Below are positions 721 to 33,147 of a stretch of DNA of 64,000 nucleotides, in pieces (the stretch's first letter is position 1; each line of letters begins with the position of its first letter). The position numbers and the translations under genes were made by a program. Origin of the DNA: Oscillospiraceae bacterium (GTDB taxonomy: Bacteria > Bacillota > Clostridia > Oscillospirales > Oscillospiraceae); assembly GCA_021203345.1 (NCBI GenBank), contig JAJQBJ010000068.1:9336-73335 (forward strand). The letters are read 5' to 3'. Below the pieces are notes generated by a model. That model did no database searches, was not told the DNA's origin, and saw nothing but the letters and a program-made list of their open reading frames with translations.

Positions 721-1587
721 ATGAAAATGGCACAAAGAATTACAGGCCATACGGAGATGATCGGTCTGATTGCAACGCCGATTCGGCACAGCAAGTCCCC
801 CATGATGCACAACACCGCGTTTGAGGCCCTGGGGCTGGACTATGTGTATCTGGCCTTTGACGTGGCCCAGGAGCAGCTGGACGCTGTGGTGAAGGGCCTG
901 CGGGCCATGGAGGTGCGGGGCTTTAATGTCTCCATGCCCTACAAGACGGAGATTTTGAACTATCTGGATGAGATCGACTCCAGCGTGAAGCTCATCGGTT
1001 CCTGCAACACCGTGGTCAACGAGAGCGGGAAATTCTACGGCTACAACACCGATGGCATGGGCTATATGGCCGGTTTGAAGGACAACGGTTTTGACCCCGT
1101 TGGGAAAAAGCTGACGGTTCTCGGCTCCGGCGGCGCGGCCACCGCCATTGTGATGCAGGCGGCGCTGGACGGCGTGGCTGAAATCTCCATCTTCAACGGG
1201 AACGACCCCTTCTTTGCCCGGGCGGAACACAACGCCCAGGTCATCAACGAGAACACCGGCTGCAAGGCGGTGGTGTACAGGCTGGAGGATACCCAGCGGC
1301 TGAAGCAGGAAATTTCGGAGTCCTACATTCTGGCTAACGCCACCAATGTGGGCATGGGCGCTCTGGAGGGACAAAAGCTGATTCCGGATACCTCCTATCT
1401 GTATCCGGAGCTGATTGTCACGGATGTGGTCTATTCCCCGGCGGAGACGGCACTACTGAAAATGACGAAGGAGTATGGCTGCCGCACCATGAACGGTCTG
1501 CCCATGATGCTCTATCAGGGAGCCGCGGCCTTTAAGCTGTGGACAGGGAAGGATATGCCCATCGACGCGGTGAAGGCGGTTATCTGA
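721..1587 (+). CDS. aroE: shikimate (quinate) dehydrogenase
   Basis: 288-aa ORF with N-terminal IATPIRHSKSPMMHN and a GSGGAA dinucleotide loop, the typical AroE layout. Confidence 0.88.
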   Translation: MKMAQRITGHTEMIGLIATPIRHSKSPMMHNTAFEALGLDYVYLAFDVAQEQLDAVVKGLRAMEVRGFNVSMPYKTEILNYLDEIDSSVKLIGSCNTVVNESGKFYGYNTDGMGYMAGLKDNGFDPVGKKLTVLGSGGAATAIVMQAALDGVAEISIFNGNDPFFARAEHNAQVINENTGCKAVVYRLEDTQRLKQEISESYILANATNVGMGALEGQKLIPDTSYLYPELIVTDVVYSPAETALLKMTKEYGCRTMNGLPMMLYQGAAAFKLWTGKDMPIDAVKAVI

Positions 1588-3042: not shown

Positions 3043-3619
3043 AATTTCAATCCGCGATTCCCGTGAGGGGAGCGACGCGGGAACACCGTCTACATCTTCC
3101 CATCGCAGCTATTTCAATCCACGCTCCCCGTGAGGGGAGCGACGGCGTGGCCATCGACGATTACCGTTTCACGATCATATTTCAATCCACGCTCCCCGCG
3201 AGGGGAGCGACTATTGCGGCGGATGAGGAGGCCGCAAAGCTGTTTGAATTTCAATCCACGCTCCCCGCGAGGGGAGCGACAGTCCACGCCGCTCATATTT
3301 GCGCTCCACATTTTGTATTTCAATCCACGCTCCCCGCGAGGGGAGCGACGCAAGCACCCTTGTATCAGGGGCGGCGACGTTCCAATTTCAATCCACGCTC
3401 CCCGCGAGGGGAGCGACATGATGTTTTGGTATGGTGGAGGGTTTTCCCGGTATTTCAATCCACGCTCCCCGTGAGGGGAGCGACCCAGGTCACGGTAGGC
3501 CACCACCTGCTTTCGGTTATTTCAATCCACGCTCCCCGTGAGGGGAGCGACCAGATTGAGTTGATGATGCGGCAGGTGAAGCTGGGCATTTCAATCCACG
3601 CTCCCCGTGAGGGGAGCGA
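3043..3619 (-). CRISPR. type I-C CRISPR array, 9 repeats / 8 spacers (34-36 nt)
   Basis: The 33-nt repeat read on the minus strand is GTCGCTCCCCTCACGGGGAGCGTGGATTGAAAT, the I-C signature with a 7-bp hairpin and ATTGAAAT tail. Repeats start (plus strand) at 3043, 3110, 3178, 3247, 3316, 3384, 3451, 3518 and 3587. The cas-distal repeat at 3043 has 3 mismatches. Confidence 0.97.
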
Positions 3620-3800
3620 CAGCAAAAATGCACAAAAATCATTGGAAAAAGAAGTGCATTTTTGCGACAAATAATTGGCCGAAGGGTCAAAGCAGCGGCG
3701 GAAACTGAGAAAAAAAGTTCCCAAACCGGCCTGTTTCAACCGTTCAGACCGCGCGAACGGGGCGGTGTTTTCATGTTCGCTTGCCGTTCGCGCCCGGGGC
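3620..3800 (-). promoter_or_regulatory. CRISPR leader
   Basis: 181-bp non-coding stretch between the cas2 stop and the first repeat. It contains an AAAAATGCAC...GTGCATTTTT inverted repeat. The promoter was not confidently located. Confidence 0.5.
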
Positions 3801-4091
3801 TCAGAGAATCAGCGGCCCGGCGGCATCATAGCCGCACTTGGCCCCAAAATGCTCGATCCGATTGTGGTAGTTGTTTCCAAGATTATAAAAGCGAAGGCTG
3901 TCTCGCTCCATATCAATGATATCACAGAGCTTTGCTTTGAGCAATCGGTATTGAGCCGCATCCAAGGAACATTCAAATACCGAATTTTGCACCCGTTGAC
4001 CGTAATTGACGCACTGCTTGGCCAGCTTACGCAGGCGGCGCTGTCCGGAAGCATCCTCAGTGTTCACGTCATAAGCAATCACAACAAGCAT
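3801..4091 (-). CDS. cas2: CRISPR-associated endoribonuclease Cas2
   Basis: MLVVIAYDV... N-terminus typical of Cas2; 96 aa. Follows cas1 directly. Confidence 0.9.
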   Translation of the reverse strand: MLVVIAYDVNTEDASGQRRLRKLAKQCVNYGQRVQNSVFECSLDAAQYRLLKAKLCDIIDMERDSLRFYNLGNNYHNRIEHFGAKCGYDAAGPLIL

Positions 4092-4098
4092 GGCAACC

Positions 4099-5130
4099 TC
4101 ACTTCCACAAAAACGGCGGATATCCGTCCAAATCATCCCGGAGATACCGGGCTAGCAATAGCGCCTGCACATAGGGAACCAGTCCCCAGGGCAGCTTTTC
4201 CTTTAGAAACGGATGAGTAATGACAGTCTGCTTCCGCTCCTGCCAGGCCCGTTGTACCTTCTTGCGGCCATCTCCGGCCAGAAAAACAGCGCCGTTTTCC
4301 TGCTCCTCAAAATCCTTCTCGGATATCTCCTGATTGTTGATGAGGGTCAGTACAAACCGGTCTGCCATACAGGGCCGCAGTTCCTCCAGCAGATCCTGTG
4401 CCAGGGAGGTTCGGCCGGGGCGATCCCGGTGGAGGAAGCCTACATAGGCGTCCAGCCCCACCATTTCCAGCGCCGAAGCACATTCATTGCCCAGCATGGT
4501 GTAGACAAAGGACAGCAGCGCATTGACCCGGTCAAGCGGCGGGCGGCGGCTCCGTCCGTGGAAGAAAAAATCCTCCTTGTTGCGTAAAATCATGTCATCG
4601 AACAGACCAAAATACAGGTTGGCTCCAGCACCCTCCAGCCCCCGCAAAGCATCCAGGGAGGTTTCATCCATCACCTGAGGCAGCAGTCCCCGCATTTGGT
4701 CGGAAACGGTCAGGAACTGCTGGGTATCCAGCCGGGGCGCATGATCCCGGCGTGCCCGATCCAACACCTGGCGGGCGTTGCTCAGCTTGCCGAAAATCAT
4801 GTTCCGGGCGATACGGCAGCTCTGTAAAGGGTCGTCCGCCACCCGGTATTGGGTTCAGCGCAGAAGCACATTCCCCTGGCTCATGCCGCAGGTTCGGGCC
4901 AGAAACCGACCCCGCGGGGTCAGAAAGACCAGATTCACGTTTTCCCGGGCGCATTTGCCCATCAGAGCGGGGGAGGCTCCGGGGTAAGTGAACAGGAAAA
5001 TACCCTCCAAAATGTGCAGAGGAAACCGACCAAGAATTTCCTCACCCTTGCGAATCACCACGTTTTCCCCGTCCAGCGTGGCGTAGGCGTCCTCCACGGT
5101 GACGAACAGCGTGTTCAGCAAATGTCTCAC
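4099..5130 (-). pseudogene. cas1: Cas1 (I-C) interrupted by a single in-frame TGA (codon 92, coordinates 4855-4857)
   Basis: The GTG start at 5130 overlaps the cas4 stop (GTGA). The 343-codon frame reads ...GNVLLR*TQYRVADDPL... and is otherwise intact, matching Cas1 length and N- and C-terminal motifs (LLNTLFVT ... YPPFLWK). Confidence 0.85.
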
Positions 5131-5786
5131 GGTTCCTTCAGCTCCCCTCTCAGATACTCTGTTACACTGGGGCTTTTTGCCAGACGTGGCAGGCACAAAT
5201 CCTTCAAGGAACAGGCATTGCACCCCTTTGACGGCTTGCTCCTGGGCGTATATCCCCGCTGGAACAGCTGGTGCATTTCCGCAGCTGATTGTTCCACCAA
5301 AGTCCGCAACTCCGGGGTGAAGGACACCTCCTGCCGCCGCCGGGGCTGCCCGTAAAACAGCGCCCCCGCCGGGATGGTGCAGCACAGCATTTCCTCCAGA
5401 CATATCGCCTGGGCGCAGAGCTGTGCTTCATCGCAGGCGGTGGGCTTTGCCTTGCCCCGCTTGTATTTAACGGGGTAAGGATTCCAAAGCCCCTTGGCCT
5501 CTGCCAGCGGCACGCCCTCCGGTGAGCGCCGGAATTCCACCACGTCGCACTCCCCGGACAGACCCAGCCGGGCCGAGTGAACCCGCATGGCCCGCACTGT
5601 CAGCAAATCTCCCCGAAGGGTGCGTAGTTCTCCGTCGTGGGCGTTCTTGTGCAGTAAATCGCCCTCCACCGTGCGGATGTTTTCCGCCCACTGCTGTTCC
5701 AGATGAATCAATGCCCATTGGCGGCGGCAAAAGACAAAGTGCTGGATGCCGGAGAGGGGGAGGTAGTCGGATTCGTCAAATGCCAT
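5127..5786 (-). CDS. cas4: Cas4 RecB-like exonuclease
   Basis: 219 aa with a C-terminal Cys cluster (CNACSLKDLC) and an N-terminal FVFCRRQW motif. Position matches the I-C operon. Confidence 0.9.
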   Translation of the reverse strand: MAFDESDYLPLSGIQHFVFCRRQWALIHLEQQWAENIRTVEGDLLHKNAHDGELRTLRGDLLTVRAMRVHSARLGLSGECDVVEFRRSPEGVPLAEAKGLWNPYPVKYKRGKAKPTACDEAQLCAQAICLEEMLCCTIPAGALFYGQPRRRQEVSFTPELRTLVEQSAAEMHQLFQRGYTPRSKPSKGCNACSLKDLCLPRLAKSPSVTEYLRGELKEP

Positions 5787-6612
5787 CGATCACTTCCGGC
5801 TCCAGACCGGGCAGCGGCTCCAAAGTGATTTCATAGTCCTCCACCGAAGTAGGCAGGGCAGAGGGATCTCTTTGAACCACTTTGACGGAACGATGTACCC
5901 GGGCAGAGGAATACTGCCCCTCTTTGCAGTTGTGTTCCCACCAATAGAGCTGTACGACCTCCATGGAGCCATCCGGACGGGCAGAAGAGGCGTCGTTGAC
6001 AAATAGCGTCCGCAGACACTCCTTGACGGTTTCAGCATCATTCTGGGTGAAGCCCGTCTTTTCTGCCAGCTGCACATTGATGGAGCCTTTGACCTTGTAC
6101 AGACCGAAGCGCACAAAATGCTTCATGCCCATACGGTCAGAGGACAGCTTCTCCTTCTTTTCTCCGTTGACACTTTTGGTGATCTGCATATCAGCCACCT
6201 GAATGGGAGAAGCGCTGACTGCCTGATGGATGGAGACGGGGCCGCGAACCCCCACGGAAACGCCCTTGGCATCCCCAAAGGCAAACACCTGTCCAAAGGA
6301 ACGCACATCCAGCCAGGTTTCACAGGCTTTTTTTGCATAGGCCTCCCGGTCAGTCATCTTGCCCAGCTTACTTGCCCGCTCACTGAGACTTTTGCAGCCA
6401 TCGGCGCACCGTTCCTCCGACTGGACAAAAATCGGGTTGCCCAGATCCTGCATCCGATTGCGGATTTTCCGCTTGATGCACACGTCAGACATCTCGCCAT
6501 ATCCGTTGTAATCGGTGCGGGGGCTGTTGCCGTTCAGGGGATCGCCGTTGGCGTTGGCCATAGTCACGGAGAGCAGGGCCACAAAGTCGATTTTATGCTC
6601 TAATACGCTCAT
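5776..6612 (-). CDS. cas7: Cas7 (Csd2), type I-C backbone subunit
   Basis: 278 aa with an ...ANANGDPLNGN... N-terminal motif typical of Csd2/Cas7. Confidence 0.9.
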   Translation of the reverse strand: MSVLEHKIDFVALLSVTMANANGDPLNGNSPRTDYNGYGEMSDVCIKRKIRNRMQDLGNPIFVQSEERCADGCKSLSERASKLGKMTDREAYAKKACETWLDVRSFGQVFAFGDAKGVSVGVRGPVSIHQAVSASPIQVADMQITKSVNGEKKEKLSSDRMGMKHFVRFGLYKVKGSINVQLAEKTGFTQNDAETVKECLRTLFVNDASSARPDGSMEVVQLYWWEHNCKEGQYSSARVHRSVKVVQRDPSALPTSVEDYEITLEPLPGLEPEVIDGI

Positions 6613-6626
6613 GTTCTGTTACCTCC

Positions 6627-7028
6627 TTATTGTTCTTCCGCTGTCACTTCGGCGGTGGGTTCGTTTGCTTCTTCCTTGGGTTTCCGGTAGGCTCGCTGAT
6701 TATGGTACCCTAACACATAGGTATCCTCCAGCTTTCGATTCAGATTCTCGTCATGCAAGGAGAAATTATCCATAATTTCATCAACCTGGTTCTTGTAATA
6801 TGCACGCAGACGTGACGGCAGCTTCTGATAATAGGGACGTAAACGCTCCTCCAAAACGACCCAAGTGTGCATTGGCTGCTGTACAAAGATCGATTGCAGT
6901 CGGATGGCGTTGGGTTGACGGCTCTCCTTATCCTTGTCGTCATAGGTGCTCCATTCTACAGCCTCCGCAATAGCCAGCAGACGGCCAAAGAGATAGCTTC
7001 GATCAGTTTCATTTTTGTCCAAAGACAT
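6627..7028 (-). CDS. cas11: candidate Cas11c small subunit from an internal start within cas8c
   Basis: In-frame ATG at 7028 is preceded by AGGAGG (7042-7037) with 8-nt spacing. The product would be 133 aa (MSLDKNETDRSYLFG...). Internal cas11 translation is established for I-C. Confidence 0.5.
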   Translation of the reverse strand: MSLDKNETDRSYLFGRLLAIAEAVEWSTYDDKDKESRQPNAIRLQSIFVQQPMHTWVVLEERLRPYYQKLPSRLRAYYKNQVDEIMDNFSLHDENLNRKLEDTYVLGYHNQRAYRKPKEEANEPTAEVTAEEQ

Positions 7029-8429
7029 CCCGTATTCCTCCTTTGTGGTGTCAAAATGGTATTTTCGGATGGCTGCACAGGTGAGAAACAGCAGCCGTTG
7101 GCGTTCTTCACGAGGCAGCAGCTGCAAGTTGGATGCCCGCTGCACCAGCAGACGTTCTATATCCACCGGGAAAATTGCCCGGTCTACCCGGCAGGACACC
7201 AGCCGCTGAACCTGTTGCTTCAAAATCCTGTCGTCCACGACCCATTTGTTTTCCCGGTAATTGCCGAACGCGCAGGTTACCAGCCAGTACAGGGCGGGGG
7301 ACTGAATACCAAATATGCCATTTACCCAGCAGCAGCTGGCATCCCAATCGTACAAACGTTGCAGAAAGTCCGAGGCCAGAAGCTCGTTGTAATAGGTCAG
7401 CGCCAGCCGCCCTGTGGTGGCTGCATCAAAGGCAGCAATGACTACGCCTGCATTTTCCGGTAAATCTGTTTGCCAGCCGGAGAGGGTTTCCCGTAGCTGC
7501 TTTTGATATTCGGTGGGATTTTTGGCACTGGGCTGATTTCGACGGTCCGGCCGGGTCATTGCGTTGGTAGGGGCGGGAACCGGCTTGCCCTGGGGATTCC
7601 AGCAGAGGAAGGTGCGTCCGCCCATGGTTACCCCTTGGTTGTCCGCCAGCCAGCGCAGGGCGTTGTGGGCTTTTTGAGAGGCGGTATACCCTACGGTGGC
7701 TGCTTGCCAGCTCTCGTCAAAGCGCCCCCGGTAGGTAAAGCCGCTGCTGTCATTGGCGGAGATTAGCTTGGCGTTACCATTGGCAGGGATGATACCCTTG
7801 ATGTGCTGTTTGGCCAGCACATCCCAGTCCCCGGAAATCATGCAGAGGTTTTGTGTCCAGCCCTCTTTTCGACTGGCGTAATATTGGCTGAAGGACTCCA
7901 TCAGCCCCCGATTTGTCCAGCACGGCCCACTGTCAGCAGCGTCCAGCCCCAGTATCACCCAGCGCACCAGTGCCTTTTCATTTTTCGGATACCCCTTTTC
8001 GTCCAAGGTAATCACACCTGCCCGTACAAGGTCATCCAAAATGGTTTCTCCCTGAATATAGGTCAAAACCGGCTGCAACTGAGGGTGGGTGTAAGGTGAT
8101 GCAGCCCAGTCCGCCAGCTGCTCCACATACAGCGTATGTTTTTTCTCCACGCAGGGAGCCAGGTAAGCCAGCTGGTCGCACAGCGGATGAGCGCAGGCGG
8201 CACTGGTGCGTCCGGCAGAGTCCTCCGTTACAGGAATGACGATTTTAGGCTCTGTTTTTTCCACTGCTCTGGCGGACAGGAAGTGACCGTCCTGATCCAG
8301 TGTGATTTCGATGTCTGCCCGGGTGGTAATATACCCCAGAGGAGCCAGAGTGACTTTATCCTGGTATTCTACACCGGCCAGATATTGAAAGGTATCGTAG
8401 GTTTCACAGGCTTTTTGCAATAATCCCAT
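6627..8429 (-). CDS. cas8c: Cas8c (Csd1), type I-C large subunit
   Basis: 600-aa ORF between cas5c and cas7. Size and position are diagnostic for I-C. Confidence 0.88.
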   Translation of the reverse strand: MGLLQKACETYDTFQYLAGVEYQDKVTLAPLGYITTRADIEITLDQDGHFLSARAVEKTEPKIVIPVTEDSAGRTSAACAHPLCDQLAYLAPCVEKKHTLYVEQLADWAASPYTHPQLQPVLTYIQGETILDDLVRAGVITLDEKGYPKNEKALVRWVILGLDAADSGPCWTNRGLMESFSQYYASRKEGWTQNLCMISGDWDVLAKQHIKGIIPANGNAKLISANDSSGFTYRGRFDESWQAATVGYTASQKAHNALRWLADNQGVTMGGRTFLCWNPQGKPVPAPTNAMTRPDRRNQPSAKNPTEYQKQLRETLSGWQTDLPENAGVVIAAFDAATTGRLALTYYNELLASDFLQRLYDWDASCCWVNGIFGIQSPALYWLVTCAFGNYRENKWVVDDRILKQQVQRLVSCRVDRAIFPVDIERLLVQRASNLQLLPREERQRLLFLTCAAIRKYHFDTTKEEYGMSLDKNETDRSYLFGRLLAIAEAVEWSTYDDKDKESRQPNAIRLQSIFVQQPMHTWVVLEERLRPYYQKLPSRLRAYYKNQVDEIMDNFSLHDENLNRKLEDTYVLGYHNQRAYRKPKEEANEPTAEVTAEEQ

Positions 8430-8432
8430 GCA

Positions 8433-9158
8433 TCACGCCTCCTTAAATTCCGTCAGTCCGGAGAAATTATCCTGTTCGACACCGAAGGGCTTGATCTCCA
8501 TGGAGCGCAGCGGCTTGGTCAGGGGACATTCCTCAGGCCGGACAAAAGAAATTATGCCTTTTTTCATGGTGGGATACCAGAATCGGGCAGTCATTTGGTT
8601 GGCTGTTTCCGGAGAATAGGCTTCGTCGGCGTAGGTAATGCCGTGGTACATCAGACCAAAGCTCAACTCCGGCAGTTCGTCGTAGGCGCCAGACCCTTCC
8701 CCGAACACACAAGGCTCCACATAGCCCTGACACTCCCGGGCACCCAAAAAGATATCTCTCCGGCCCCCTTTTTGAATCATCCGTTTGGCGATGTTGTGAT
8801 GTTTTTCCTCGTTGCGGTCCCCAGCAAGCTCCGGGCGATTCTCGTTCCATTCAAAGTGGGCGCGTACCTGATAGCGGCAGTTTTTCAGGTAGGTGTAGAA
8901 GGACAGATCGTTGCTGCCACTTGTGTATTTGATTGGGCGGATGCCCTTGACCTCTGTCTGGATCTGGTTCATCACGCGGACTGCATCCACGATCCATATA
9001 AGGGTGGGCTTCCAATATGTGGAAGATAATATACCCTTCAGTCCTTCATAAGTGGGCACCTGGTAGGTATATTTCTCTCCGCCTACCCGCATGATCGGGT
9101 CAGAGAATAGAGCGTAGTCGCCAGAGACTTCAAACTCTACGACGTTCGGATACTTCAT
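8433..9158 (-). CDS. cas5: Cas5c (Cas5d) pre-crRNA endoribonuclease/Cascade subunit
   Basis: 241 aa with MKYPNVVEFEVSGDYALFSDP... typical of Cas5d. It is the first gene after the cas3 gap. No cas6 is present, as expected for I-C. Confidence 0.9.
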   Translation of the reverse strand: MKYPNVVEFEVSGDYALFSDPIMRVGGEKYTYQVPTYEGLKGILSSTYWKPTLIWIVDAVRVMNQIQTEVKGIRPIKYTSGSNDLSFYTYLKNCRYQVRAHFEWNENRPELAGDRNEEKHHNIAKRMIQKGGRRDIFLGARECQGYVEPCVFGEGSGAYDELPELSFGLMYHGITYADEAYSPETANQMTARFWYPTMKKGIISFVRPEECPLTKPLRSMEIKPFGVEQDNFSGLTEFKEA

Positions 9159-9190
9159 TGCATGGATACGCCTCCAATTACTTTTTTTGT

Positions 9191-9210
9191 TTCATTTGAT
9201 GGGCTGTATA
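9191..9210 (+). promoter_or_regulatory. TTC-PAM plus 17-nt partial protospacer matching the crRNA-like RNA; overlaps the cascade-operon TSS
   Basis: TTC (9191-9193) is followed by ATTTGATGGGCTGTATA (9194-9210). The spacer of the crRNA-like gene reads ATTTGATGGGCAGTATA. That is 16/17 identity, with the only internal mismatch at position 12. Confidence 0.6.
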
Positions 9211-9213
9211 AAA

Positions 9214-9242
9214 ATTATACGGCAAAATAACAGGGATGTCAA
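9214..9242 (-). promoter_or_regulatory. consensus sigma-A promoter of the cas5c-cas8c-cas7-cas4-cas1-cas2 operon
   Basis: The minus strand reads TTGACA (9242-9237), a 17-nt spacer, then TATAAT (9219-9214). The predicted TSS is near 9207. GGAGG and the ATG of cas5c lie about 48 nt downstream. Confidence 0.7.
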
Positions 9243-9334
9243 CTGTAACTTCAACTTTTTTACAATCATTCCAGTTTCTTGGATGATTTGATGTGAGCCA
9301 TACGAACTTTTTCGCTAGCTTTTCTCTTTTTTAC

Positions 9335-9363
9335 TTGCGGCTTTTACACGCAGGAGGTATAAT
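9335..9363 (+). promoter_or_regulatory. promoter of the crRNA-like RNA
   Basis: TTGCGG (9335-9340), a 17-nt spacer, then TATAAT (9358-9363). The predicted TSS near 9370 coincides with the GTC that begins the degenerate repeat. Confidence 0.55.
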
Positions 9364-9369
9364 AGCTAA

Positions 9370-9457
9370 GTCAGTGCAAGCTGTGGATTGAAATATTTGA
9401 TGGGCAGTATATGTTTCTGTACCCGGTGAAGCTATGCTTCACCGGGCTTCTCTTTTT
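9370..9457 (+). ncRNA. crRNA-like (CreR/CreA-type) RNA: degenerate repeat + partial self-targeting spacer + terminator hairpin
   Basis: GTCAGTGCAAGCTGTGGATTGAAAT (9370-9394) shares the first 3 and last 12 nt with the array repeat. The spacer starts at 9395. An 11-bp hairpin CCCGGTGAAGC-TAT-GCTTCACCGGG (9422-9446) is followed by CTTCTCTTTTT. Confidence 0.6.
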
Positions 9458-9535
9458 CACGCCCCGTTATAGCGAAGCTACTGTTCCGTCAATCGGACTA
9501 TTTACGATTTCCCTATTTTGAAATGGTTTGCTACA

Positions 9536-11941
9536 TTACTCCACTCCCAGATAAGGCATCGAACCGGGTTGTTCCTCTAACGTAAAGCCGATTTGTTCAT
9601 CATAATGTCCAATCAACGCCATTGCACCACAGTTTAATGGCAGTAGCCCGCCCTCCTTCTCTAACTGCTCTATCTGATAGCGGTAGAGGGAAACGGAATA
9701 GGGCTTGGCTTGTTGTATCAAATGTTTTGCGTATGTCAGGTCGTACTCCGCCCGGCTGCTATTCAACTCATGAATTAACTCTGTTCCCTTGTCATAGGGA
9801 ACGATGACATCAATAGAGTCCTCATCGAACACCTCGAACAGCGATCCTGCCAGTCGAAACGCCTGGCAGAAATAGTAGGGGTGCGATTTTTTCCGCTCTA
9901 TTTCGTTTAGGGAGAGCAGCGAGAATAATGTCATTGGTTGGCCTTTGACTGTGATAGGGCCATCCTGTGCGCCTATCGGCATCCGAGCATAGAACTGCTG
10001 ATAGTAATATCGTATGGATTCATCAGAAGCTAAGTCATTCCCAAAGAACTCTGGGCTCTGCCGGAAGGCGTGAAACAACGCAATGGTCGCGTCTTTTCCT
10101 CGTTGGATATCGGGTAGTTTTCCCAGCTTTTCGCCTTTGCATTGAACCACAAGGACAGGAGCAACAGTGCCAGAGCCAGCTTCACCGTTCCGGTTACATC
10201 GGCCCGCTGTCTGAATTGCACTGTCCATGCCAGCGGCGAGCCGAACCCCGCGGCCAAAGGAGATGTCCACTCCCGCCTCCACTACCTGGGTGGAGACACA
10301 TAGGGTTTTATCACTTTCTTTGTTGTCCAACGCAGCGTTGAGCGCTTCCAGCACATTCCGCCGGTGGGCGGGGCACATGGCTGCGGATAGGTGGAAGCAC
10401 GTTCCACTAATATTCTTCAAGCTATGGAACAGCGTCTGTGCTTGCTCCTTTTTGTTGCACACCACCAGCAGGCTGTCTGTTTCCTCCAGCAGATTTTGGG
10501 ACAATGCGGCAATCTCGTCCAAAGAAGCACTGCCGCCATCCTGAATTTCCGTTCGACGAAAGATTGCCCACAAAGCCGGGTCATAGGGCAGAAGTTCTCT
10601 GATCGGACTGTGAAGGGGGTGGGGTGTCTGTTCGATACAAGGTTGTGTGGCGGAGCATAGAACTACTGTGGCGTGACAAAACTCGGCCAGGAAGTTCACC
10701 GCCAGCGAGAACAGAGACAACAGCTTCACTGGCACAGTCTGCACCTCATCAATGATAATCACGCTGTTGCACAGTGCCTGAAACCGACGCACTGCGCTCA
10801 TTTTCCCAGAAAAGAGGGTGTTCAGTAATTGCACCAGGGTGGTGATGAGGATGGGGGCGTCCCAATTTTCGGTTAGGAGTTCCCGTTTGTCCAGATGTTC
10901 GGGAGCGGTTTCTTCTCTCACCAGATTGGAATGGTGTTCCAAAATCAAACTGTCATCTTGAACATAGTCCCGAATTACCTTGGCGTTCTGATCCAAAATG
11001 GTCAGCAGGGGAGAGACGAAAATGATGCGGCGTTTCCCGCTGGCCTCTGCATGAGCCAATGCGAAGCGCAGGGATGAGAGCGTTTTGCCGCCGCCGGTCG
11101 GGGCGTTTAGCCGGAAAACACCGCCGGATGAGGCAGCGCCAGCCTTACATCGATCGGAAATTTCCCGCCTGGCCCGATCAATTTCCGAGGCGTGTGGCAA
11201 CTTGTTCAGCTGTTGCTCATCTCGGGCTAAACAACCAGGCCAAAGGTCTTTCAACTCCGCATCTGTCCGGCGAGGGGCAAGACGTATCCCCTGCATGAAC
11301 TCGGTCGTGTCCCGACGATCTCCTTCCACTACGGCGGAGAGCATCAGACGGGCCAGCAGCCCGGCATAAAAGGCTGTCTCGTTGCCATATTGATCGGAAT
11401 CTCCATCTGTCATGTAGCAGATTCGCTCCAGCGCAGGACACAGCTCCGCCGATGCCGCTTCAAAGAGGTGATCCAACTCCGCTGGGGATATGGCAAAGCT
11501 GAAAAAGTTTTCTCGGGCTTCCTCATAGTCGATATCTGCTTTTGTCAGGCGGTGCTGAAAGCCGGATTTCCCGTGCTCGTCCACGCAGTCGAACCAACCG
11601 TGGTGACCACCTACCGCCAAGGCAAGTACCTCGCACGCCACATCTGAACGCTCCAGACTATCGTGGTGATAGCACTCCAGCAGGAGCCGCACTCCGGCAA
11701 AGGTGTGGTTGACGGAACCTCGGTGAACAGGCTCTCCCTGAACGGAGCGAATGAGGTAAGTTTGATATGCCTGGGTCAATTTACCGCAGTCGTGGAGCAG
11801 TCCGGCCAGGCGGGCGCTCTGGGATAATCCGACACATTCCAATGCATCGGCAGCGTAGATAGCCGTCCCCTCCAAATGGGCCTTTACAGTCTGTGTGCGT
11901 CCATCCTCTGTCCGATGGGCGATGTATTCAGTTTTTTCCAT
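9536..11941 (-). CDS. cas3: Cas3 HD nuclease/SF2 helicase
   Basis: 801 aa with an N-terminal HD domain (LLHDCGK), Walker A NAPTGGGKT and a DExQ box (IIIDEVQ). Confidence 0.95.
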   Translation of the reverse strand: MEKTEYIAHRTEDGRTQTVKAHLEGTAIYAADALECVGLSQSARLAGLLHDCGKLTQAYQTYLIRSVQGEPVHRGSVNHTFAGVRLLLECYHHDSLERSDVACEVLALAVGGHHGWFDCVDEHGKSGFQHRLTKADIDYEEARENFFSFAISPAELDHLFEAASAELCPALERICYMTDGDSDQYGNETAFYAGLLARLMLSAVVEGDRRDTTEFMQGIRLAPRRTDAELKDLWPGCLARDEQQLNKLPHASEIDRARREISDRCKAGAASSGGVFRLNAPTGGGKTLSSLRFALAHAEASGKRRIIFVSPLLTILDQNAKVIRDYVQDDSLILEHHSNLVREETAPEHLDKRELLTENWDAPILITTLVQLLNTLFSGKMSAVRRFQALCNSVIIIDEVQTVPVKLLSLFSLAVNFLAEFCHATVVLCSATQPCIEQTPHPLHSPIRELLPYDPALWAIFRRTEIQDGGSASLDEIAALSQNLLEETDSLLVVCNKKEQAQTLFHSLKNISGTCFHLSAAMCPAHRRNVLEALNAALDNKESDKTLCVSTQVVEAGVDISFGRGVRLAAGMDSAIQTAGRCNRNGEAGSGTVAPVLVVQCKGEKLGKLPDIQRGKDATIALFHAFRQSPEFFGNDLASDESIRYYYQQFYARMPIGAQDGPITVKGQPMTLFSLLSLNEIERKKSHPYYFCQAFRLAGSLFEVFDEDSIDVIVPYDKGTELIHELNSSRAEYDLTYAKHLIQQAKPYSVSLYRYQIEQLEKEGGLLPLNCGAMALIGHYDEQIGFTLEEQPGSMPYLGVE

Positions 11942-30646: not shown

Positions 30647-33147
30647 TCAGTAAACGACCACGGTGGTATTCACCGGGACATAGTTATAGATGTAGGTCAC
30701 ATCCGGGGTGAGCATCCGAACGCAGCCGTGAGAGATGGGATAACCAATGGAGGCGTCCTTCAGCGTGGAGGAGCCGGGGTAGTACAGACGGGAGTGGAAC
30801 GCATAGCCGGAACCGGGGTAGAACCGCACCACTGGGGCCACCGTATAGGAGGAGGTATACCAACCGGACTGCTTATAGGTGATATAGGTCACGCATACCG
30901 GCGTGGGGGAGCTGCTCTTGCCCGTGCCGCAGATGAAGGTTTTGCTCAGCTTCCAGTTGCCCTTAGAGCGGTGAAGATATAGACCTTCTGGCAGGCGCGG
31001 CTGACCCAGATCAGGTAGCCGGTGGAGCTGGAATAGCCCTTGCTGTTGACGTAGTTTTCCTTGGCCGTGTTGGAGTAGTCCACGTTATAGCTGTGCGTAT
31101 AGTTCCCGGAATAGGTGGAGGAATAGCTGAGAATGATGGTGGCGGCGTTTACCACGCTGTCAGAGCTTTCCCAGTTCACTGTGCCGGTGGAGGTATGGGT
31201 GTAGGATGTCCAGGTTTCCGACTTGCCGCTGCCGGTATAGGTATGGCTTGTGGCGGCCTCCATCACGGCTACAAAGGCCCAGTGGGAGGAGCTGAGGTCA
31301 GAGAAGGTGTACCGGGAATCCATCGCGTTTTCTGCGGAGCTGTCGCCGTAGCGGTTCATGATCCGGTTGAAGATGGTGACTGCCTGAGCGCGGGTCAGGG
31401 CGCTGTCCGGGGAGAAGGTTCCGTCGCCCATACCATTTACCCAGCCCTTGGCGCTGACCGTAGAGATGGCATAGTAGTAGGGGTTGGATTCATCCACATC
31501 CGTGAAGCTGTTGCTGCTGTGAGACAGAGTCGTCAGACGGGAGATCATCTCCACAAACTCGCCCCGGGAGATCGTCTCGTCCGGGTAATAATTCCCGCCG
31601 GTTGCGGTAATGATATTCAGGGACGCTAGCGTGGTGATGGCCTCATAATACCAGGAGTCGGAGGCCACGTCTGCAAACGTGGTGGCATAGGAGCCGCGGC
31701 TCTGGCTGCTCAGAAGGGAATAGAGCATCTGGCAGGCCTCTGCGCGGGTCAGGGAGTTATCCGGGCGGAAGGTTCCGTCGCTGTAGCCGTTGATATAGAC
31801 CACATGGCTGGTGACCAGGGAAGGGGAGTACCAGGCGGTATAGGACACATTGGCAGTTACTTCTGTGATGTAGGGGTCAGCCATGGTATTGGTTCCGGTG
31901 ATGACCCAGCGGGCAATGGATTTGCCGGAGGCGTTGGTGGTGGGGATGCCGCTGCTCCCGGCCGTTTCACCGGGATAGACATACATGGTCGTGGCGTTGC
32001 CGTCCACCAGGAAGGTGACGGTGTAGGAGTGAGTATAGGAAGTCCAGACCTCCGCTTCGCCGGTGGTGTCGGCTTCATGGTCGATGGTGGCCTCCATAAT
32101 GGCGGCGTAGAACCAGCTCCCGGTGGATACGTCTGTAAAGGAGCGCAGCCCCTCGCCGGAGGCAATCACAGAGGTGTCGGCGGAGCGCCCCAGGATGCGG
32201 TTGAAGATGGTGACTGCCTGTGCCCGGGTCAGACCGGTATCAGGGGAGAAGGTGTCCTCCGTCATGCCAGTTACCCAGCCCAGAGCGTAGGCGGTCATGA
32301 TAGCCTCATAATAGGGGTCAGACTCCGATACGTCGTTGAAGGGATTCTCTGCCTCTACGCTGTTGACCAGACGGGTGACGATTGCGACGAACTCAGCGCG
32401 GGTGATGGCCTCGTCCGGGCCAAATTCCCCACCGTCGCAGTCAAGCAGTCCCAAAGAGGCGACAGTGGTGACAGCGGTATAATACCAGGCGTCGCTGCTG
32501 ACATCGGAATAGGTGCAGGGGAACGAACCGGCGGACGTGTCCACCAGCAGGTTATAGAGAATCTGCGCTACCTGTGCGCGGGTCAGGGAATTGTTCGGGC
32601 CAAAGGAGCCGTCTGAATAGCCGCCCATATAGGCGGAGTGGTCGGAGATCAGCGTCGGGGCGAACCAGGCCACCAGCGTGATATCCCCGGTCAGGGTCAG
32701 CTCGGAAGGCTCCACCACCGCACTGAGGTCGGAGGAATACCAGCGAATGACGGCGTTGCCGTCCTCGTCCTCGGTGGGAACCGACTCTGCGGGAATCACA
32801 GTGTCCTCTCCGTCCTCTGCCTCCACCTCAATCGTGATCTGGCTTTCGCCCAGGATAAAGGTGACGGTGTATGTGGTCGGTTCCTCGGGCGTTTCCGGGT
32901 CAGGCTCCTCCGGCGTCTCCGGTTCGGGATCCTCGGAGGGTTCCGGGTCGGGTTCCTCGGAGGGTTCCGGTTCGGTTTCCTCGGAAGGCTCCGGGTCGGG
33001 CTCCGTGGTATCATCCTCGTCCATGATAACGGTTGTGACCGCTGCCTGAGTGTCGGCGGAATCCTCCTGCACGGCGGCATAGGCCGGTGTCACGCCGATC
33101 AGCATGGCAAGAACGAGAATGGCGCAAATCAGCTGTTTCTTTCTCAC
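30647..33147 (-). pseudogene. secreted SLH-domain cell-wall protein with C-terminal L,D-transpeptidase (YkuD) domain, frameshifted at about 30958-30975
   Basis: Signal peptide, an acidic PEPSEE linker and two blocks of three SLH repeats (FSDVSSDAWYY..., FNDVSESDPYY..., FTDVSTGSWFY...). The YkuD domain is split: ...QKVYIFTALRATGS* and then, in another frame, SKGNWKLSKTFICGTG...SHGCVRM. Confidence 0.75.

Follow-up and report, generated by a model that had tools for sequence, protein, structure and literature searches.

RNAs of the CreR class, which resemble CRISPR RNAs (crRNAs), have been tested experimentally in subtypes I-B, I-E, and V-A, where they repress cas promoters via partial complementarity (bioRxiv 10.1101/2023.03.10.532045; mLife review PMC13131331). 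For subtype I-C, CreA-like elements have been noted in a manual search (bioRxiv 10.1101/2023.03.10.532045), and I-C CreA/R queries have served to find viral mimics in work that also describes the single-repeat-plus-terminator design of CreR (bioRxiv 10.1101/2024.10.29.618823). The literature consulted here yielded only bioinformatic mentions of I-C CreRs and no experimental work. The element in question lies in a 64,000-nucleotide (nt) stretch of contig JAJQBJ010000068.1 from an Oscillospiraceae bacterium (the window, to whose positions coordinates refer unless another locus is named), which carries on its minus strand a type I-C locus with the complete gene set (NCBIfam matches: cas3, cas5c, cas8c, cas7, cas4, cas1, and cas2). 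Judging from sequence comparisons, the unit at 9335-9457 is very probably a CreR-type crRNA-like gene of type I-C, which would guide the cell's own Cascade onto the promoter of the Cascade operon and repress it. Its status as an I-C example of this established class, for which I-C candidates had previously been listed bioinformatically, is well supported.

The 377-nt gap between cas3 and cas5c contains, on the plus strand, a promoter, a miniaturised repeat, a pseudo-spacer, and an intrinsic terminator (Table 1). The miniaturised repeat ends in the exact 5' handle of the array repeat, of which this is the single copy outside the array in the whole 64 kb. The region 9370-9457 folds with -29.8 kcal/mol (z = -3.4). 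In the predicted fold of the relatives, the mini-stem comprises four Watson-Crick pairs in register with the stem of the array repeat and leaves exactly 11 nt unpaired, like the array repeat itself. Neither full repeats on both sides nor a full-length spacer match are present; with one shortened repeat and a 17-nt match, the unit is not a functional array unit or a self-targeting spacer. A search of Rfam at a permissive threshold gave no match in the region 8900-9800.

The pseudo-spacer matches a target site in the same gap at 16 of 17 positions (16/18 when position 18 is included), with mismatches at positions 12 and 18 and no similarity after position 17. Type I effectors flip out positions 6, 12, and 18 of the R-loop and leave them unpaired. 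When the gap was shuffled 20,000 times, none of the shuffled sequences (0/20,000) gave a 16/18 match next to a TTC protospacer-adjacent motif (PAM); the best result was 15, reached once. The motif that flanks the target agrees with the 5'-TTY PAM of I-C Cascade (bioRxiv 10.1101/2023.08.05.552134), and no further site combining PAM and seed was found in the 64-kb window, including the surroundings of the cas3 promoter. Because the target lies between cas5c and the -10 box, it spans the point where transcription from the cas5c promoter is predicted to start; this promoter reads directly into cas5c through a 49-nt leader. The -10 box corresponds to protospacer positions 21-26, which places it within the Cascade footprint and beyond the paired part.

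A first-pass annotation based on the letters alone had already described this arrangement, and re-reading of the sequence together with promoter and terminator scans confirmed all of its coordinates for the unit, target, PAM, promoters, and terminator. It was right about the preservation of the entire 11-nt I-C handle (11/11), the 11-bp terminator hairpin followed by a T-run, the partial match directly 3' of TTC, the perfect-consensus promoter ahead of cas5c, and the lack of such a site at the cas3 promoter. Two of its statements stand in part. The CAG/CTG pairs of the mini-stem are present, but the stem is not limited to 3 bp: the C-G, A-U, and G-C pairs are joined by a U.G wobble and capped by a GCAA tetraloop. 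The genes said to be driven by the targeted promoter were correctly named, but cas1 is frameshifted in the window.

The comparative evidence comes from a genome scan with Cas5c, which yielded 80 type I-C loci, and from protein look-ups, which added two more relatives (L143/L190 and L144). The family considered here consists of the window and eight relatives (the six closest loci of the scan, which stem from Clostridiales genomes, and the two additional ones), whose Cas5c proteins are 88-91% identical to that of the window. A cas3-cas5c gap of 340-390 nt occurs only in the window and these eight closest relatives, whereas the two genes are separated by -22 to +32 nt in 73 other I-C loci; the long gap is therefore best explained by a lineage-specific insertion that brought both a promoter and the small-RNA gene. 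The nine family loci have the unit between cas3 and cas5c in nine chromosomal contexts.

Conservation within the gap is concentrated in the ribosome-binding region, the TTC, the cas5c -35 box, the small-RNA -10 box, the repeat-like element, and the terminator stem, whereas the sequence between these blocks varies freely and is least conserved between the target and the small-RNA promoter. TTC, handle, and terminator are retained in all eight relatives, and the full repeat-like element with its promoter in all except L001. Likewise, eight of the nine loci share the small-RNA TATAAT at its distance of 6 nt from the repeat-like element, both having been lost by deletion in L001, and eight of the nine show no change in the cas5c -35 box. 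Among the seven distinct pairs of pseudo-spacer and target, compensated changes occur at positions 1 (A/A or G/G), 5 (G/G or A/A), 6 (A/A or T/T), 10 (G/G or A/A), 11 (C/C or T/T), 13 (G/G or A/A), and 15 (A/A or G/G). A mismatch at position 18 is common to all seven pairs, six of which also have one at position 12; in the L003 group, the mismatches fall exactly at 6, 12, and 18. In none of the family loci does pairing continue beyond position 17. The alignment of related gaps, which the first-pass annotation had suggested, thus combines an invariant TTC in nine loci with co-variation at seven positions, and these comparative data lend support to its idea of a CreA/CreR-like self-repression of Cascade by a seed-plus-partial match.

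Two relatives illustrate how the parts of the circuit behave under genome change. In L001, the small-RNA -10 box has been lost along with the 5' portion of the repeat-like element through a 35-nt deletion (at about 2804-2824 of that locus); five of 18 target positions are mismatched, and the cas5c -35 box is altered as well. The circuit of L001 appears to be decaying as a unit, as expected of a functional pair. Locus L190 (GCA_001941165.1, contig MSHF01000063.1, 4667-6000) lacks cas3, in place of which are found a transposase of the IS630 family and unrelated genes of sugar metabolism; the genes from cas5c to cas2 have remained intact, as have the small-RNA gene (5795-5771) and the target (5973-5953, where positions 12 and 18 are the sole mismatches).

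A second TTC/TTT-flanked site, TTC ATTTGATGGGAACTATGC, is located on the minus strand in the middle of the gap in L003 (2888-2868), L005 (2888-2868), and L006 (2032-2012). It is closer to the window-type pseudo-spacer than to the pseudo-spacer of its own locus, and the window retains a PAM-less relic of it (ATTTGATGTGAGCC, 9286-9299). Such mid-gap sites may be a trace of how pairs of pseudo-spacer and target arise or are exchanged.

The window unit thus displays a stand-alone degenerate repeat in a cas locus with the cognate handle nucleotides, a partial identity, confined to the PAM-proximal side, to a site that bears the cognate PAM, a target at the (predicted) promoter of the effector cas genes, transcription signals of its own (in silico), and co-evolution of pseudo-spacer and target, all of which characterize CreRs. 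From this combination, we infer how the RNA would be transcribed, processed, and bound, and how it would repress. Transcription would proceed from the unit's own promoter with a start at about 9370. Cas5c would recognize the mini-hairpin and the handle and cut at the mini-hairpin base, which would leave an RNA that begins with the 11-nt 5' handle, upon which Cascade would assemble on the pseudo-spacer, with the terminator hairpin substituting for the 3' repeat hairpin. The loaded complex would recognize the TTC at 9191-9193 and form a three-segment R-loop (positions 1-5, 7-11, and 13-17) on the cas5c start point, while the remainder of the complex would cover the -10 box.

Since pairing halts at position 17, the full R-loop that recruits Cas3 would not be reached, and the genes from cas5c to cas2 would be repressed without cleavage. 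Binding without cleavage is supported by the cryo-electron microscopy of the I-C system of Neisseria lactamica, which revealed a stable partial R-loop state and binding of Cas3 only to the full R-loop conformation (bioRxiv 10.1101/2023.08.05.552134). Repression would ease whenever Cascade is scarce, titrated by array crRNAs, or blocked by an anti-CRISPR, resulting in negative feedback; relief of CreR repression by crRNA competition or anti-CRISPRs has been shown in other subtypes (bioRxiv 10.1101/2023.03.10.532045; review PMC12737573). With its own promoter, cas3 would stay outside the control of the small RNA.

Table 1. Features of the crRNA-like unit, its target, and the type I-C locus in the window.
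Feature	Position	Strand	Basis and remarks
TTC PAM (type I-C), non-target strand	9191-9193	plus	sequence reading; invariant in 9/9 family loci
Target site ATTTGATGGGCTGTATA, 17 nt	9194-9210	plus	~200 nt left of the unit; equals pseudo-spacer positions 1-17 except position 12
Predicted Cascade-operon promoter: TTGACA (9242-9237), 17 nt, TATAAT (9219-9214)	9242-9214	minus	promoter scan, 12/12 consensus
Predicted small-RNA promoter: TTGCGG (9335-9340), 17 nt, TATAAT (9358-9363)	9335-9363	plus	sequence reading
Degenerate repeat (psiR) GTCAGTGCAAGCTGTGGATTGAAAT: GTC, mini-hairpin (9372-9383), handle	9370-9394	plus	6 nt past TATAAT
Exact 11-nt 5' handle TGGATTGAAAT	9384-9394	plus	11/11 identical to the last 11 nt of the array repeat GTCGCTCCCCTCACGGGGAGCGTGGATTGAAAT
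Pseudo-spacer (psiS) ATTTGATGGGCAGTATAT, 27 nt	9395-9421	plus	positions 1-11 and 13-17 match the target
Intrinsic terminator: 11-bp stem (hairpin 9422-9446), 3-nt loop, T-run	9422-9457	plus	terminator scan; replaces the second repeat
cas3	9536-11941	minus	NCBIfam; outside the regulated unit
Predicted cas3 promoter	12045-12017	minus	promoter scan, 11/12 consensus
Putative regulated operon cas5c-cas8c-cas7-cas4-cas1-cas2	3801-9158	minus	NCBIfam matches
cas5c	8433-9158	minus	NCBIfam
cas8c	6627-8429	minus	NCBIfam
cas7	5776-6612	minus	NCBIfam
cas4	5127-5786	minus	NCBIfam
cas1, frameshifted	4099 to about 5130	minus	NCBIfam
cas2	3801-4136	minus	NCBIfam
CRISPR array, 9 repeats and 8 spacers, repeat GTCGCTCCCCTCACGGGGAGCGTGGATTGAAAT	3044-3620	minus	reference for the repeat and source of competing crRNAs

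A protein in the annotation of an Oscillospiraceae metagenome-assembled genome shares 100% identity with the Cas5c of the window. The cas1 gene (minus strand, 4099-5403) is split, with a break near 4845-4857: positions 2-89 of the Cas1c profile lie in one frame, which is closed by a TGA at 4855-4857, and positions 96-340 in a second open reading frame (ORF) at 4099-4842. The split reflects either an error of assembly or a genuine frameshift, which would disable adaptation. A further conserved block (9462-9510) separates the small-RNA terminator from the stop codon of cas3, and its equivalents in L144 and L004 form a long hairpin followed by a T-run, a would-be second terminator on the plus strand. 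The hairpin at 9422-9446 was also considered as a terminator of cas3 but was rejected, since a T-run is lacking behind it on the minus strand. Elsewhere, a 24-nt unit (GGTCGGGTTCCTCGGACGGTTCCG) without relation to the CRISPR locus is tandemly repeated at 32875-33004 in 5.5 copies with about 80% matches.

Several observations weigh against a CreR-type function. When the 25-nt degenerate repeat of the window is folded alone, the structure of minimum energy differs from the mini-hairpin, which has just 4 bp including the wobble; processing by Cas5c is therefore not assured. The pseudo-spacer comprises 27 nt up to the terminator hairpin, compared with 34-36 nt in the spacers of the array, and both the small-RNA promoter and the cas5c promoter were predicted by consensus. 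No clear minus-strand terminator was seen behind cas3, so transcription might read through into the cas5c operon. In L004, the target has diverged to 11/18 matches, which indicates that pairing strength is not uniformly kept, and the literature offered no expression, processing, or binding data for I-C examples, the window unit included.

One rival interpretation is a CreA-type antitoxin of a CreTA/CrePA-like addiction module, whose main role would be to silence a toxin (a small RNA or a peptide) in the gap or in the cas5c leader, with cas repression as a side effect. CreA and CreR are similarly built, and some CreA targets are also located at cas promoters (bioRxiv 10.1101/2023.03.10.532045). 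The gap contains short ORFs, and the cas5c leader harbors a strictly conserved mini-ORF of two codons (ATG CAA TGA, minus strand, 9163-9155) that starts 7 nt past a strong GGAGG. However, the stop of this mini-ORF overlaps the ATG of cas5c (ATGA), whose true start is 12 nt from the GGAGG (region 9155-9175, minus strand); the arrangement is invariant in all nine family loci, lacks a CreT-like run of rare codons, and looks like a device for translational coupling. Apart from the mini-ORF, no ORF of the gap lies downstream of the repressed promoter, which leads straight into cas5c 49 nt further on without a creT toxin gene under its control; conservation in the gap is lowest from the target to the small-RNA promoter. 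A check for a coupled toxin at the sequence level, which an RNA toxin could escape, revealed no conserved ORF or Rfam family in the gap. With a promoter that runs into cas5c and a leader that holds just a two-codon mini-ORF, an addiction module is very unlikely.

The degenerate repeat, the missing second repeat, and the short pseudo-spacer would also befit a decaying repeat-spacer remnant that resembles the promoter by local duplication and has no regulatory role, and the gap holds additional partial copies of the motif (window 9286-9299; L003 2888-2868) that could indicate a history of duplication. Decay, however, accounts poorly for a similarity that begins exactly at the handle and exactly at the TTC and halts at position 17, for mismatches at the unpaired positions, and for compensated double changes at seven positions in the relatives. 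Moreover, the -10 box, 5' handle, and terminator stem of the unit are among the best-conserved blocks of the gap, the deletion in L001 aside, and independent lineages with unrelated sequences follow the same pairing rule, which leaves a mere remnant barely credible. A different main role, either as a sponge for Cas5c and Cas7 that limits interference or as a guide that leads Cascade to another genomic target, with the promoter match being secondary, is highly improbable. It draws on the related RNAs of mobile elements, whose effect is due in part to competition with crRNAs for Cas proteins (bioRxiv 10.1101/2024.10.29.618823), on the persistence of the unit in L190 after the loss of cas3, and on the fact that the search for other targets covered 64 kb of the genome only. 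Against it stand the cas5c promoter as the sole PAM-plus-seed site in the window and the co-variation, which binds the pseudo-spacer specifically to that site.

CreR-like genes also occur elsewhere in type I-C. About ten other I-C lineages among the 80 loci (L010, L015, L018, L029, L036, L038, L051, L062, and L077; positions about 250-520 of the respective loci) have a hairpin abutting TGGATTGAAAN, followed by an unrelated pseudo-spacer, upstream of cas3. For each pseudo-spacer, a partial match flanked by TTC or TTT lies close to the cas3 promoter, and pairing ends at 16-18 in all lineages but L077 (to 22). At least 16 of the 80 loci (20%) carry such a gene; in L064, a repeat-like element is present, and a convincing target was not found. 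Counted over nine independent lineages, which exclude the later-found L036, matches occur in all nine at positions 1-5, in five at position 6, in seven to nine at positions 7-11, in none at position 12, in seven to nine at positions 13-17, and in two to four, the background level, from position 18 onward. A rule that position 12 is always mismatched in I-C CreRs (0/9) was dropped because L036 has 17 consecutive matches. The limit of three segments and 17 nt, found in nearly every I-C lineage examined, may represent a selected safety rule that marks the boundary between binding and licensing of Cas3.

Outside cas loci, a metagenome scan with the repeat-like 18-mer GCAAGCTGTGGATTGAAA gave 58 matches, nearly all of which were discarded as unrelated coding sequence (e.g., a repeated co-chaperone-like gene); only L128, a 1050-nt metagenome contig (Ga0172381_10416387), was relevant. 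Viral contigs scanned with the same 18-mer and with handle plus seed (GGATTGAAANNTTTGNTGG) produced only chance or coding matches and no phage-borne mimic of the window family. The AT-rich contig L128, which is free of cas genes, contains the same repeat-like element (GTCAGCGCAAGCTGTGGATTGAAAC, 785-809, minus strand) behind a consensus-like promoter, followed by an unrelated AT-rich pseudo-spacer and a terminator. Its ORF, judged by eye from the translation, is presumably DUF262-like, and no meaningful target of its pseudo-spacer was found in the fetched loci. L128 could be a mimic borne by a mobile element.

Both L128, with an identical repeat-like element outside a cas context, and L190, which has lost cas3 yet keeps the small-RNA gene and its promoter, would fit a scenario in which this block is a transferable cassette that split an ancestral cas3-cas5c operon and placed Cascade, but not Cas3, under RNA feedback. 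This scenario is rather unlikely; if true, the module could serve Cas3-independent gene control by Cascade or be traded with mobile elements as an anti-CRISPR mimic. The compact type I-C system is employed in genome editing and CRISPR interference. A natural guide that would bind without licensing Cas3, by means of a 17-nt three-segment match, a 4-bp GNRA mini-hairpin, and a terminator as its 3' end, bears on the engineering of I-C systems, and autoregulation bears on their response to anti-CRISPRs. The coexistence of cas3-included and cas3-excluded control represents a natural experiment on why the nuclease and the surveillance complex might be regulated apart.

Among the described systems, tracr-L of the II-A system of Streptococcus pyogenes shares only the logic, in that a natural guide takes the effector to its own promoter by a short match; its effector is Cas9, its RNA scaffold is different, and there is no homology. 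The Cracr/Racr RNAs of phages and plasmids have a solitary repeat-like element and a terminator, some with a promoter-matching pseudo-spacer, but they are borne by mobile elements and act against the host, whereas the window unit resides in a host cas locus; L128, with the same repeat-like element, may be a mobile copy of this kind. CreTA of the I-B system of Haloarcula hispanica, with its antitoxin RNA CreA and toxin RNA CreT, likewise relies on a crRNA-like RNA with which Cascade represses a promoter by partial complementarity. By contrast, the window has no recognizable toxin gene, and the repressed promoter drives cas5c itself.

The window unit most closely resembles the CreRs of the I-E system of Salmonella enterica and of I-B and V-A systems (Liu et al., bioRxiv 10.1101/2023.03.10.532045), which are also degenerate mini-CRISPRs in a cas locus that have kept the handle nucleotides. 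They share with it a match restricted to the PAM-proximal part, a cognate PAM, a target at the promoter of effector genes, and no evident toxin partner; their feedback is relieved by crRNA competition or anti-CRISPRs, as is predicted for the window unit. The I-E CreR of Salmonella is also located between cas3 and the Cascade operon. The position of the window unit is therefore not new in principle. Unlike these CreRs, the window unit belongs to subtype I-C, where Cas6 is absent and Cas5c would therefore have to process the RNA; its single repeat retains a stem of only 4 bp, closed by a GNRA loop, and a terminator stands where the second repeat would be. Pairing is spread over 17 nt as three segments of 5 nt, positions 12 and 18 being mismatched, as opposed to 15 consecutive nt in Salmonella.

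The advance over the previously listed I-C candidates is incremental and consists of the strong record of co-variation, a GNRA mini-hairpin that is very short, the limit of 17 nt in three segments across I-C lineages, and the operon split that would exempt cas3. The units upstream of cas3 in other I-C lineages have in common with the window the handle, the hairpin abutting it, the TTC or TTT PAM, and the halt of pairing at 16-18 (L077 excepted), but their location suggests that they would control the whole operon from cas3 to cas2. In the window family, an insertion placed the unit and a new consensus promoter between cas3 and cas5c, and cas3 would therefore escape control.

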